DNA of 64,000 bases from an uncultured Holophagales bacterium (GCA_963842525.1 CAWJGT010000034.1:256001-320000); one strand, 5' to 3'. Counted from the first letter of the stretch, positions 1-64,000 are shown. Program-made: numbers and translations. The notes: generated by a model from the sequence alone, not told the origin.

Positions 1-3000
1 CTCTTCGGCGGCACGATCGTCCTGCGCGGCGAGGCCGAGCGCAGCAACATCGAGGGGTATCTCCAGGAGGTCCGGGACCATGGCATCAACACCCTCCACA
101 CCACCCCCTCCTTCTTCCGCGCCGTCGCAGCCGCAGCCGCGGGAGAGGGCCTCCCGCTCCAGGTGCTCCATCTCGGCGGCGAGGCCCTGGGTGAGGGGCT
201 GGTCGCGGAGGCCTTCGTCATTACCGGCGAGGGGTGCCGGATGTTCAACGGCTACGGGCCGACCGAGGCAGCAGTCAACTGCGCTCTCTACGAGGTGGGA
301 CGGGCGGCGGACTGGCGCCCGCGCGGGCTCGCCTCCATCCCCATCGGCCACCCCTCGGCCGAGAACCGCCTCTACGTGCTCGACCGCCGCCTGCAACCCG
401 TGCCGGTCGGCGTACCCGGCGAGCTGCTGGTCGGCGGCGTGGCGCTCTCCCGCGGCTATCTCGGCCGGCCGGACCTGACCGCGGCGCGGTTCATCCCCAA
501 TCCCTTCGGCGAGCCCGGCGGGCGCCTCTACCGCACGGGCGACCTCGTCCGCTTCCACGCGGACCGGGCCATCGAGTTCCTGGGGCGCGTCGACCACCAG
601 GTCAAGATCCGCGGCTACCGCGTCGAGCTCGAAGAGATTGAGGCCGCCCTCTCCGCGCACCCGGAGGTCGGCGCCTGCGCGGTGGTCGCGGTGCGCCAGG
701 AAGGCGGCGAGACCCGGCTGCTGGCCTATGTCGCGGCCCGCCGCGAGCCGGCTCCGGGCGCCGAGGAGCTGCGCCGCTTCCTCGGCCGCACGCTGCCCGG
801 CTACATGCTGCCCGCGGCGTTCATGTTCCTGCCGGAGCTCCCCTTGAGCGTGAGCGGCAAGGTGGACCGCAAGGCGCTGCCGGCCCCGGACTGGACGGCC
901 GCGGCCGGGTGGGTGGCGCCGCGCACGCCGGTCGAGGAGCTGCTCGCCGGGTTCTGGAAGGAGCTCCTCGGCTGCGAGCGGGTGGGTGCCCGCGACGACT
1001 TCTTCGAGCTCGGCGGCCATTCGCTCCTCGCCACGCGCCTGATGGCCCGGGTGCGCACGGCGCTCGGCGTCGAGCTGCCGGTGCGCAGTGTCTTCGAGGC
1101 GCCCACGGTCGAGGCGCTGGCCGCGGCGATCGAGCGGGCGGGCGGCGGCGCGGGCGCCGGAGCCGCGATCCCGCGGCTGCCGCGCCGGCCGGGCGAGGAC
1201 GTGTTCCCGCTCTCGTTCGCCCAGGAGCGCATCTGGTTCCTCGAGCAGCTCGAGCCGGGGAGCGCCTTCTACAACATTCCGTCGGCATCCCTCCTCACCG
1301 GGCCGCTACACATCACAGCGCTGCGGCAGGTGATCGCCGAGCTGGTGCGGCGCCACGAGTCGTTGCGCACTACGTTCGGCGACGTCCAGGGCCGGCCGTT
1401 CCAGACCGTCTCGGCCACAGCGTCCGCCGAGGTCCCGCACATCGACCTCTCGGGACTGCCCCGAAGCCTGCGCGATGCCGAGCTGCGGCGGCGGGCCAGC
1501 GACGAGTCCCGGCGTCCCTTTGACCTCACTCACGGGCCGCTCTTCCGCGTCCCGCTCTTCCGCCTCGGCCCGGAGGAGCACGTCCTGGTGCCGACGATGC
1601 ACCACATCATCTCCGACGGCTGGTCGATGACCGTCCTGATCCGCGAGACCGCGGCGCTCTACACGGCGCTCTCGACCGGACGGACTCCCTCCCTGCCCGA
1701 GCTGCCGGTGCAGTACGCCGACTATGCGGTCTGGCAGCGCGGCTACCTCCAGGGCGAGGAGCTGGAGACCCGGCTCGCCTGGTGGCGCGAGCGGCTCACC
1801 GGCGTGCCGGGGCTGCAGCTCCCCACCGATCGGCCGCGCCCCCCGGTCGAGACCTTCCGCGGGCGGCAGCAACTCGTGGCGCTCTCCGCTGCGCTTACCC
1901 GCCGCCTGCACGAGCTCTCCACCCGCGAGGGGGTCACCCTGTTCATGACCCTCCTCGCGGTTTTCCAGACGCTGCTGCTGCGCATCACGGGGCAGACCGA
2001 CCTGCCCGTGGGCTCGCCGATCGCCAACCGCTACCGGAGCGAGGTCGAAGAGGTGATCGGCTTCTTCGCCAACACCATCGTGCTGCGAACGGACCTCTCG
2101 GGGAACCCCTCGTTCCGCGAGCTGCTGGGGCGCGTCCGCGAGGTCACCCTGGGCGCCTACGCCCGCGAGGACCTCCCGTTCGAGAAGCTGGTCGAGGAGA
2201 TCCAGCCCGAGCGCGACATGAGCCGCAACCCCCTGTTCCAGGTCATGTGCGTGCTGCAGAACCAGCCCTGGCCGGAGGCCCGCATGGGGGAGGTCGAGAT
2301 CACCTCGCTGCCGGTGGACAGCGGCACGGCCAAGTTCGACCTGACGCTCTTCTGGCGCGAGGACGCCGGGGTGCTGGCCGGGCTGCTGGAGCACAACACC
2401 GACCTCTTCGACGACGCGACGGCATGGCGCCTCTACCGCCACCATGAGGCGCTGCTCCGCGCCGCCCTGGACGACCCGGAGGCGCGGCTCGGCGCGCTGC
2501 CTCTGCTCGACGACGCCGAGCGCCACCAGATCCTGCGGGAGTGGAACGGCGCCTCCGAAGCGGCGGCGGGAGGGGCGTGGGCCGGCCGCTGCGTGCATCA
2601 CCAGGTCGAGGAGCAGGCCGCGCGGACGCCGGACGCCCTGGCCGTGATCGACGGCGAGCGGACGCTGACCTACGCCGAGCTGGACGCCCGGGCCAACCGC
2701 CTGGCCCGCGGCCTGGCGCGGCGCGGGGTGCGGCCGGAGGCGTTGGTGGGGATCTGCGTGGAGCGGTCGCTGGAGATGGTGGTGGCGGCGCTCGCCGTGC
2801 TCAAGGCCGGAGGCGCCCTGGTGGCTCTCGATCCGGCCTACCCGCGGGACCGGCTGGCCGCGATCATCGACGACGCGCGGCTGGCCGTGCTGCTCACCCA
2901 GGAGTCGCTGCTCCAGCACTTCCCGCAGCACCAGGCGATTGCCTTCCTCCTGGAGCGCGGCGACGATCCGTTCCCGGAAGAGAGCGAGGAGAGCCCCCGC

Positions 3001-62500: not shown

Positions 62501-64000
62501 GTCAAGATCCGCGGCTTCCGCGTCGAGCTGGGCGAGATCGAGAGCCAGCTCTCCCGGGCTCCCGGCGTGCGCGAGGCCGTGGTGCTGGCCCGCGCCGACC
62601 GGGCGGGACAAAAGTACCTGTGCGGCTACGTCGTCGCCTCCGGGGAGACCCCCGGCGAGGGATCAACCGGGGCGCTCCAGGCGCATCTGGCCGCGTCGCT
62701 GCCGGGCTACATGATCCCGGACACCTTCGTCTTCCTCTCCGAGCTGCCGCTGACGGCCAACGGCAAGATCGACCGCAAGGCCCTGCCCGAGCCCGAGGCG
62801 GCCCATGCCGCCGGTGAAGCCCATGTGGCCCCGGCCGGCGAGGTCGAGGCGGCCCTGGTGGAGATCTGGGAAGAGGTGCTGGGCCTGCCCGGCATCGGCA
62901 CCACAGCGGACTTCTTCGCCCTGGGAGGGCACTCCCTCTCGGCCATCCAGGTCCTGACCCGGGTGCGCCGCCGCTTCGAGGTCGATCTGCCCCTGCCCGA
63001 CTTCTTCGACAGCCCCACAGTGGCCGGGCTCGCCGCCGCTATCGAACGGCTGAGGGGGGCGGGCGCCGCGGCCCCGCCGCTCGTCCGGCGCGAACGGCCG
63101 GAGCGGCTGCCGCTGTCCTTCGCCCAGGAGCGGCTCTGGTTCCTCGACCGGCTCCAGCCGGGCAGCCCGTTCTACAACCTGCCCCTGGCCATGGAGGCGC
63201 ACGGCGCCCTGTCCGTGCCCGCGCTGGCTGCCAGCCTCGGCGAGGTCGTCCGCCGCCACGAGGTGTTGCGCACGTCCTTCCCCGTCATGGCTGGCAATCC
63301 GGTGCAGCTCATCGCACCCGCCCTCGACGTGGCGCCTCCGCTGGTGGATCTGGGCTCCTTGCCCGCGGAATCCATCACGGCCGAGGTGGGCCGGCTGACT
63401 CGCGCTTTCGCCGTCCTGTCCTTCAACCTCGCCGCCGGGCCCCTGCTGCGGACCGCCCTGCTGCGCCTCGCCCCGGAGCGCCACGTGGTGCTGGTCAACA
63501 TGCACCACATCATCACCGACGGCTGGTCCATGGCCCTGCTGATGCAGGAGGTTGCCGGGCTGTACCCGGCCGTCAGGAACGGCGAGCCCTCGCCGTTGCC
63601 CGAGCTGTCCGTCCAGTATGCCGACTTCGCCCTCTGGCAGCGCGCGGGGCTCTCGGGAGCGGCCCTGGAGGAGCAGGTCGGCTGGTGGCGCCGCAGCCTG
63701 GCCGGCGCTCCCTACGTGCTCGACCTTCCCACCGACCGGCCCCGGCCGGCCATCCAGAGCCTGCGCGGCGCCCACGCCTCCTCGTTCCTGCCCGCCGGCC
63801 TCGCGCGCGAGCTCCAGGACCTCTCCAAGCAGCAGGGCGTCACCTCCTTCATGACCCTGCTCGCGCTCTTCGGCGTGCTCCTGCACCGCTACACGGGGGT
63901 CGAGGATCTGCTGATCGGCTCGCCCATCGCCGGCCGCAACCACGCCGACGTCGAGCGCCTCATCGGGCTCTTCGTCAACACCCTCGTCCTGCGCGTCGAG
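56558..64000 (+). CDS. NRPS, 3'-truncated, two compensating frameshifts (~57137, ~57491): C-A(Ser)-T-C(modAA-like)-A(Cys)-T-C...
   Basis: ATG 56558 (MSIGTETPRSAAEKRELLARLL...LSFGQQRLW). After ~57493 the original frame is open to the window end, so the ORF track misses it. Hand translation gives FDVSVWELFW, GGDSIKA (~59660), WHHAILDGWS (~60302), FDLSVYDIFG (~61865), GGHSLSA (~62924) and HHIITDGWS (~63503). Confidence 0.9.
58040..59530 (+). other. Adenylation domain, predicted Ser (DVWHASLVDK)
   Basis: Hand translation: FDVSVWE, VMHFVPS, VAASGE, NLYGPTEASVD. Confidence 0.8.
59900..61200 (+). other. Condensation domain, modified-amino-acid (dehydrating) type
   Basis: Follows T GGDSIKA; EDFFPLSGIEKGMIYY...VYHDQ; WHHAILDGWS. 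Confidence 0.75.
61310..62795 (+). other. Adenylation domain, predicted Cys (DLYNFSLVWK)
   Basis: Hand translation: FDLSVYD, TFWNSVPS, AFLSGDW, SLGGATEGTVW. Confidence 0.8.

Follow-up and report, generated by a model that had tools for sequence, protein, structure and literature searches.

Introduction

What does a 64,000-nucleotide stretch of DNA encode when it begins and ends inside megasynthase genes, can those genes be taken as functional, and what does the sulfotransferase (ST) embedded among them do? The stretch (hereafter the window) is C34:256001–320000, that is, positions 256001 to 320000 of CAWJGT010000034.1, in a 9.95 Mb assembly of 34 contigs (G+C 70–73%) of an uncultured Holophagales bacterium (GCA_963842525.1). 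We consider it likely that the window is the central part of one ∼122 kb hybrid nonribosomal peptide synthetase (NRPS)–polyketide synthase (PKS) assembly line of an uncultured soil bacterium, that its genes are intact, and that a serine is sulfated in it while held on a carrier domain. Positions are counted from the first letter of the window, with negative numbers upstream of it, unless a contig is named.

A Probable Single Assembly Line Extending beyond the Window

Domains were located with Pfam scans of the long plus-strand frames and with hidden Markov models (HMMs) that were built from the best Pfam stretches and mapped on the three plus-strand frames of C34:230–366 kb. The plus strand of the window encodes 15 adenylation (A), 3 ketosynthase (KS), 18 thiolation or carrier (T), and 16 condensation-type (C) domains, one ST, one oxidase (Ox), two ketoreductases (KR), and one dehydratase (DH). 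On the six long frames that fill the window, all Pfam families matched are of megasynthases, namely Condensation, AMP-binding, PP-binding, ketoacyl-synt, Acyl_transf_1, KR, PKS dehydratase, Sulfotransfer_3, and Nitroreductase. Chance matches are not an issue because E-values in the window range from 1e-12 to 1e-270. The Ser of the attachment motif is kept in all 18 T domains, and the window has the hallmarks of a modular hybrid NRPS/type I PKS, with repeated modules on large polypeptides that retain catalytic and carrier residues. None of the five long antisense open reading frames (ORFs) tested matched Pfam, and an Rfam scan of the window returned no match. Six contiguous genes account for the window, as follows:

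<1–7659, plus strand: gene B (3′ part), A (cut)-T-C-A-T-C-A-T; it starts ∼7.1 kb upstream of the window
7652–28756, plus strand: gene C, C-A-T-KS-AT-T-C-A-T-C-A-T-ST-C-A-T-Cy-A(Ox inserted)-T (AT, acyltransferase; Cy, heterocyclization domain)
28762–38820, plus strand: gene D, KS-AT-KR-DH-T-C-A-T-C; the last C (37360–38703) is normal (HHIASDG)
38823–45203, plus strand: gene E (2128 aa), C*-A-T-C-A-T (C*, a C-type domain without its catalytic His)
45200–56555, plus strand: gene F, C-A-T-C(modAA type)-A-T-KS-AT-KR-T; a frame break lies inside the first C
56558–>64000, plus strand: gene G (5′ part), C-A-T-C(modAA-like)-A-T-C (cut by the window end); two breaks lie in the first C

The first A domain spans −578 to 462 and is cut by the window start, and gene C has two candidate start codons, GTG at 7652 and ATG at 7682. 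A preliminary description, made from the sequence of the window, had reported six contiguous genes with 15 NRPS and 3 PKS modules. Both the Pfam scans and the HMM map gave exactly these counts, and the six genes were recovered provided that F and G are read through three frame breaks. That description had also placed neither a start nor a thioesterase (TE) inside the window and had taken the cluster to be larger than the window, and this too proved right. The whole line spans ∼122 kb, from −18674 to +103420 (C34:237326–359420), with 18.7 kb upstream and 39.4 kb downstream of the central 64 kb.

At −18674, the line opens with AMP-binding and DIP2-like domains of the fatty-acyl-AMP ligase (FAAL) type, followed by a T and a starter-like C. 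It totals one starter ligase, 29 amino-acid A domains, five KS, and one end cassette. All genes lie on one strand with stops and starts that overlap or adjoin, and every gene junction joins a T or C to a C or KS. Only one internal repeat of at least 250 nt at 88% identity or more was found (1548 nt at 89%), and modules are otherwise not near-identical. We read a single line rather than several because there is one starter and one end cassette, because the domains at all junctions pair in this way, and because modules differ from one another. Such a line would comprise a FAAL-type starter, 29 amino-acid modules, five malonyl-type PKS modules, and a terminal cassette of a Cy-like domain, a truncated A, and a T.

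A Family-Wide Sulfotransferase Module

The ST lies within the Ser module of gene C:

20189–21187, plus strand: T-ST didomain, carrier motif GGNSI followed by ST at 20546–21187 (PF13469, Sulfotransfer_3, E = 5e-30)

Its closest solved relatives are the STs of OLS (4gox, E = 9e-66) and CurM (4gbm, E = 2e-63), over ∼280 residues. The blocks PRSGSTLLR, PPEL, DK(S/T)PSY, and RHP, which serve in catalysis and in binding the cofactor 3′-phosphoadenosine-5′-phosphosulfate (PAPS), align with both structures. In the mechanism that we propose, Ser would be modified while on the carrier by this embedded, PAPS-dependent ST of the CurM/OLS type.

The genome has seven embedded copies of the ST. An ordinary C domain comes next in all seven, and C-A-T precedes six of them. 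One ST module, in region C19:501892–503100, reads C-T-ST with no A domain; its carrier would therefore need to be loaded in trans. Specificity codes of the A domains in the ST modules of this genome (n = 6) are two Ser, two Thr, one Thr-like, and one unassigned (DIWEITADDK). Twenty further loci were fetched from relatives, 16 of which were readable; the other four were left out for a frame-split A domain. The 16 codes comprise six Ser, seven Thr, and one each of DASTVAAVCK, DLKNFGTDVK, and DIWEITADDK. We take DASTVAAVCK to be a Tyr code, and DLKNFGTDVK matches the published homoserine (Hse) code at nine of ten positions. Altogether, codes were read for 22 ST modules: 18 are for Ser or Thr, one is Tyr-like, one is Hse-like, and two are unassigned, and they point to STs that act on carrier-held hydroxy amino acids.

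The preliminary description had spoken of "many rare tailoring domains," a label that the distribution of the ST contradicts. All 24 family genomes first sampled have T-ST matches, often many, in open frames as long as 15,714 aa. Among 1.84 billion representatives of clusters formed at 50% identity, the ST domain has 9236 matches at E ≤ 1e-3, of which 1198 are left when the threshold is E ≤ 1e-30. The best 150 of these proteins hold 158 ST copies, with an A domain directly upstream of T-ST in 119, a KR in two, and a C afterward in 76. When the T-ST was instead queried against a collection of genome contigs, only two weak matches to Sulfitobacter carrier domains were returned. As judged from domain order and codes, the module is a family-wide C-A(Ser/Thr)-T-ST unit, and a common one in environmental DNA. 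The literature searched yielded no description of it, and the only NRPS sulfotransferase domain encountered there is that of the Planktothrix cyanopeptolin operon (PMC2533009).

A broader and more speculative proposal, which we hold only tentatively, is that C-A(Ser/Thr)-T-ST represents an undescribed and widespread type of NRPS module with a CurM-type ST that works on the residue held by the carrier, that sulfate would be a leaving group in at least some of these modules and so open a third way of making dehydro-amino acids or small rings in nonribosomal peptides, and that the line is among the longest colinear ones, making a ∼34-unit sulfated or sulfate-processed lipopeptide–polyketide. The module is in any case a wider lead than this one cluster. 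A function, once assigned to it, could cover many clusters and improve predictions of structure for products of uncultured soil bacteria.

Relatives and Host

The closest homologues of gene E among 5.8 billion proteins are 50% identical at 99% coverage, or 62% identical over 58% coverage. Identity of C* does not exceed 47% in 60 family genomes. At the DNA level, genes D and E together reach at most 69% identity in five other genomes of the same genus, and the best paralogue in their own genome is 75% identical. Fragments 95–99% identical to the window are present in soil metagenome assemblies. The preliminary description knew of no characterised product that combines these elements, in agreement with our finding no close relative or characterised counterpart by protein identity or in the literature searched. 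It is extremely unlikely that the line duplicates a cluster characterised before, given that full-length protein identity peaks at 50% among these proteins, which include NCBI and UniRef records, and that no matching pathway was found in the literature searched. By these comparisons, the line holds as an orphan for which no ortholog was found.

RpoB of this genome is 89–95% identical to proteins labelled Thermoanaerobaculia (Acidobacteriota) in all 13 matches that name an organism. A myxobacterial host, which G+C content and DUF4388 had suggested, was rejected in view of the organisms named for the homologues. One family of Multivoradales, an order of Thermoanaerobaculia, is unusually rich in biosynthetic gene clusters, according to a study of long-read soil metagenomes (PMC12818350). 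The genome itself has 378 matches to A (241 full-length), 408 to C (248 full-length), and 51 to KS (41 full-length) domains. Most of this NRPS/PKS load is on contigs C3, C34, C9, and C19, and A, C, and KS sequence totals ∼830 kb. Products of acidobacterial megasynthases are almost unknown.

Substrate Codes and the Predicted Chain

Code positions were located by motif anchors, and the subtype of each C domain was assigned from its motif and its closest relatives of solved structure. For two modules, the extraction returned exactly DILQLGLIWK, the textbook code for Gly, and is thereby validated. Codes for A domains in the window, in order, are:

Gene B: DFFHHGGVNK (unassigned), CVQHIAQVVK (Pro-like, with Asp235 changed to Cys), DALWLGGTFK (Val)
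Gene C: DPRHFVYRAK (2-aminoadipate (Aad)/Glu-like), Gly, DVWHISLVDK (Ser), Gly, DLWNLSLIWK (Cys-like)
Gene D: Gly
Gene E: DAWQFGLIDK (Gln), DAATVAAIAK (aromatic-like)
Gene F: DFWSVGMVHK (Thr-like), DFWNIGMIHK (Thr)
Gene G: DVWHASLVDK (Ser), DLYNFSLVWK (Cys)

We take DALWLGGTFK to be a Val code, and DPRHFVYRAK resembles the Aad code of bacterial ACV synthetase, for which no confirming paper was found. DVWHISLVDK is published as a Ser code (PMC12964202) and DAWQFGLIDK as a Gln code (PMC8313283). In gene F, the A domain with the Thr code (49935–51221) has an insertion of ∼39 residues, which separates positions 123 and 124 of the profile.

Read colinearly, the window would contribute 18 units. Units 1–9 are predicted to be X, Pro-like, Val, Aad/Glu-like, a beta-keto C2 unit, Gly, Ser, Gly, and thiazole, and units 10–18 an enoyl C2 unit, Gly, Gln, an aromatic residue, dehydrobutyrine (Dhb), Thr, a beta-hydroxy C2 unit, dehydroalanine (Dha), and Cys. 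A codes and subtypes of C domains reproduce the previously proposed module order at 18 of 18 positions. The earlier interpretation thus stands in its reading and order of domains, and falls short in its rarity of domains and its beta-hydroxylated Gln; the TE and PAPS-supply genes for which it proposed to inspect the flanks were not found there. Sulfation, iso-linkage, and dehydration are plausible given the types of domain present; colinearity, substrates, and the nature of the product are predictions.

Polyketide, Thiazole, and C-Domain Features

Positions of the PKS and other distinctive domains are:

10988, 28786, and 51960, plus strand: KS domains, with Cys/His/His present in all three
10988–14002, plus strand: PKS module 1, KS, AT (GYSLG, HAFH), and T, with no KR
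24659–28612, plus strand: thiazole-type module, Cy (DMLIGD instead of HHxxxD)-A (DLWNLSLIWK)-T with a nitroreductase-type Ox inserted
38847–40148, plus strand: C*, at the start of gene E, with PALCAD in the place of HHxxxD and no catalytic His; its best PDB match reaches only E = 1e-23

PKS module 1 has no KR and is therefore predicted to add a beta-keto unit from malonyl. The motif HAFH, which marks malonyl specificity, is present in all three AT domains of the window, the DH has HxxxGxxxxP, and the KRs have Tyr. AT1 (12566–13429) and AT3 (53526–54386) read GYSLG where GHSxG is usual, and AT2 reads GHSLG. In PKS module 2 (KS-AT-KR-DH-T), the KR (32113–32646) precedes the DH (32764–33603), the reverse of the usual order. 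A paralogue of this module, with 69–75% DNA identity, is located at C3:1549133–1556076. In the thiazole-type module, the Ox (27554–28072; PF00881, E = 2e-12) is inserted in the C-terminal subdomain of A. A Cy with DxxxxD, a Cys-type A, and an FMN oxidase domain are all present, the set that characterizes thiazole-forming Cy-A-Ox-T modules.

Two C domains are of the modified-amino-acid (modAA) type. For the C at 48552–49880 in gene F, the best solved relative is the C domain of McyA2 (8jbr, E = 2.7e-94), followed by AmbE (7r9x, E = 5.5e-58). For that at 59909–61258 in gene G, McyA2 again ranks first (E = 1.4e-43; also E = 1.4e-32). Both follow Ser/Thr modules, with codes DFWSVGMVHK and DVWHASLVDK, respectively. 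The structure 8jbr is a C-A-PCP (peptidyl carrier protein) construct of McyA2, and McyA1 adds N-methyldehydroalanine (Mdha), which McyA2 extends, as described in the study of that construct (bioRxiv 10.1101/2023.11.13.566838). Formation of Dhb and Dha is credited to such C domains in a paper on laxaphycins (PMC7524897). Because of these relatives, the Mdha donor of McyA2, and the attribution made for laxaphycins, it is a fair inference by analogy that the preceding Thr-like and Ser residues would be dehydrated at the C domains starting at 48552 and 59909.

The genome has eight domains of the C* type, all located after a normal C, and in three of the eight a TauD domain lies between C and C*. 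The C* of the window directly follows the normal C that ends gene D and has no adjoining TauD; five of the eight copies are likewise without one. TauD-type hydroxylases (PF02668) have eight matches in the genome and none in C34:237–360 kb. The preliminary description had suggested, with a question mark, that Gln is beta-hydroxylated. The His-less C* is present, but the suggestion is unsupported because no TauD lies beside C* or within the cluster. A hydroxylase that acts in trans on Gln is possible.

Chain Release and Flanking Genes

The line ends as follows:

C34:354786–359417, plus strand: last protein, a Cy-like C (DLILID), an A lacking its N-terminal half, a T, and a major facilitator superfamily (MFS) transporter, all in one frame

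A DUF3326 gene comes after it. Similar T and MFS ends are present at two further places in the genome and throughout the family, where MFS mostly has a gene of its own. The fusion may be an artefact of an indel since in relatives the MFS homolog is usually encoded separately, after the last T. The nearest match to PF00975 is at C34:521826, 160 kb away. Flanking genes encode TIR, PASTA, TPR, YebC, transporter, and peptidase proteins. The preliminary description had proposed checking the flanks for TE, hydroxylase, and PAPS-supply genes; no TE, PAPS, or tailoring genes were found in the flanks inspected, and the genome has its APS kinase gene on another contig, C24.

Proteins with TIR domains are present on both sides of the cluster (L001:123–2396 and L005:2548–4191), of which one also has PASTA repeats and the other DUF7779, and may serve in defence or signalling, unrelated to the pathway. 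On the minus strand, 10 kb downstream, is a pair of genes for a PALP-dependent enzyme and an ornithine-cyclodeaminase-like protein (C34:368548–370612). The pair resembles the SbnA/SbnB route to 2,3-diaminopropionate and could feed an A domain of unassigned code.

Alternative Readings

Whether the genes can be taken as intact depends on how breaks in reading frame are interpreted. The window has three:

46341–46378, plus strand: break 1, one extra base apparent; frame 2 changes to frame 3 inside a C domain (gene F)
57100–57157, plus strand: break 2, at a run of five C at 57135; one base apparently lost (gene G)
57458–57504, plus strand: break 3, outside a homopolymer (gene G)

Frame-split domains number 11 along the line, these three included (∼46360, 57135, and 57480). 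If the breaks were real mutations, the cluster would be decaying and yield no product, and the presence of one module without a C domain and the absence of a TE would fit that scenario. Most likely, they are indel errors of assembly and the genes are intact. In the same assembly, the essential gene rpoB is frameshifted (C9:670281–674541; residues 1–79 in frame 3 and 80–1421 in frame 1, relative to a 95%-identical RpoB), which marks the assembly as indel-prone. In the cluster, 78 kb of A, C, and KS sequence has 7 split domains (0.89 per 10 kb), compared with 89 in 752 kb (1.18 per 10 kb) in the rest of the genome, and 4 of the 20 loci fetched from relatives have splits of the same kind. Soil-metagenome contigs 91–97% identical to the window cover breaks 1 and 2, and the sign of the indel, read from their lengths, restores the frame at both. 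Contig X4 (record 25; 46323–46515) is one base shorter than the window over break 1; across break 2, contigs X1 (record 4) and X2 (record 15) each have one base more than the window. We read the breaks as errors because of the split rpoB, the similar genome-wide rate, the compensating indels at two of three sites, and the splits in relatives. Catalytic and carrier motifs are also intact wherever checked, and decay is very improbable. Matches to four aminoacyl-tRNA synthetases lie in intact open frames, a sample too small for an error rate, and 5–14% of sampled window words are present in public runs. Frameshifts in such assemblies are corrected as a matter of routine in the long-read soil metagenome paper (PMC12818350), and frame breaks in assemblies of this kind should not be taken for gene decay. 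A second possibility is that the apparent 36-module line is two or more lines, or includes skipped or trans-acting parts, such that the 18-unit colinear reading is partly wrong. The T-A-T junction that lies ∼3.9 kb before the window start and has no C domain, the meeting of genes D and E in a C/C* pair, and the lack of a release domain are consistent with this, and we know of no characterised precedent for lines of this length. Against it are the single FAAL-T-starter C and single end cassette in 122 kb, the location of all genes on one strand, with each stop overlapping or next to the following start, and the presence in relatives of single open frames as long as 15,714 aa, making it unlikely that a continuous line is the wrong reading.

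Within a continuous and intact line, the fate of the sulfate is less certain. The ST could be an activating enzyme, as in CurM, with the sulfate leaving and Ser becoming Dha (or a ring or thioether), such that no sulfate is kept there. Its closest solved relatives, after all, are activating STs on beta-hydroxyacyl carriers, and carrier-bound Ser and Thr, specified in most of the ST modules read, are beta-hydroxy thioesters. Two observations nevertheless favor retention. Sulfates of Tyr and Hse, each encoded by one ST module of a relative, cannot undergo beta-elimination, and two C domains of the McyA2/AmbE type after Ser/Thr modules would already provide the line with dehydration. Moreover, the ST has no TE partner as in CurM and is followed by an ordinary C in every copy in the genome. 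We therefore lean toward a Ser O-sulfate that is kept in the product, and regard activation and elimination as possible but the less probable outcome.

Several observations weigh against our reading of a single, intact, colinear line. Break 3 is outside the coverage of the soil contigs, and at breaks 1 and 2 the sign of the indel is known but not its position. The assembly is incomplete, at 96% completeness and 3.4% contamination, and our finding of no characterised counterpart is based on protein identity and text searches. No TE or reductase release domain is present in C34:237–360 kb. The codes DFFHHGGVNK, DAATVAAIAK, and CVQHIAQVVK match none familiar to us, and the C domain at 48552 has NHAIFDG where HHxxxDG is expected (NH for HH). 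Upstream of the window, at −4077 to −2043 (C34:251924–253958), is a C-less module (C-A-T-A-T-C), whose A follows the preceding T in the same frame after a short linker; this fits poorly with simple colinearity. The A-T unit shares 89% identity over 1548 nt with the module that comes next (−660 to 879), with the code DFFHHGGVNK in both, and looks like a recent duplication, to judge from sequence. Assembly collapse was considered as a source of the C-less module and rejected, given that identity between these two modules is no higher than 89% and no other such repeat exists.

Comparison with Known Systems

The arrangement of C, TauD, and C* is reportedly known from siderophore NRPSs as an interface (I) domain paired with a beta-hydroxylase, and is said to have been treated by Reitz and colleagues in 2019, in a study that PMC12230676 cites. 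The C* of the window shares the missing catalytic His and the place after a normal C and before an A, but not the partner hydroxylase. The two modAA-type C domains have McyA2 (8jbr) and AmbE modAA (7r9x) as their best or near-best solved relatives, and McyA2 likewise follows a Ser/Mdha module. Thiazole modules of epothilone and myxothiazol, likened here by description, likewise have a Cy with DxxxxD, a Cys-type code, and an Ox in the A domain.

The ST shares with those of CurM and OLS its fold family, the blocks for PAPS binding and catalysis, and its embedding in a megasynthase directly after a carrier. It differs in context. CurM and OLS are organized as KS-AT-KR-ACP-ST-TE (ACP, acyl carrier protein), whereas the window has C-A(Ser)-T-ST-C, an NRPS module with no TE after it. 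The ACP-ST-TE order that goes with decarboxylative elimination in CurM and OLS is replaced by T-ST-C in seven of seven copies in this genome. In OciA, the cyanopeptolin synthetase of Planktothrix, the sulfate is reportedly kept in the product, and the ST is reported to be part of the loading module, with glyceric acid as its substrate, whereas that of the window belongs to an internal Ser module. Likened by description, OciA is like the window in being an NRPS with an in-line sulfotransferase (PMC2533009).

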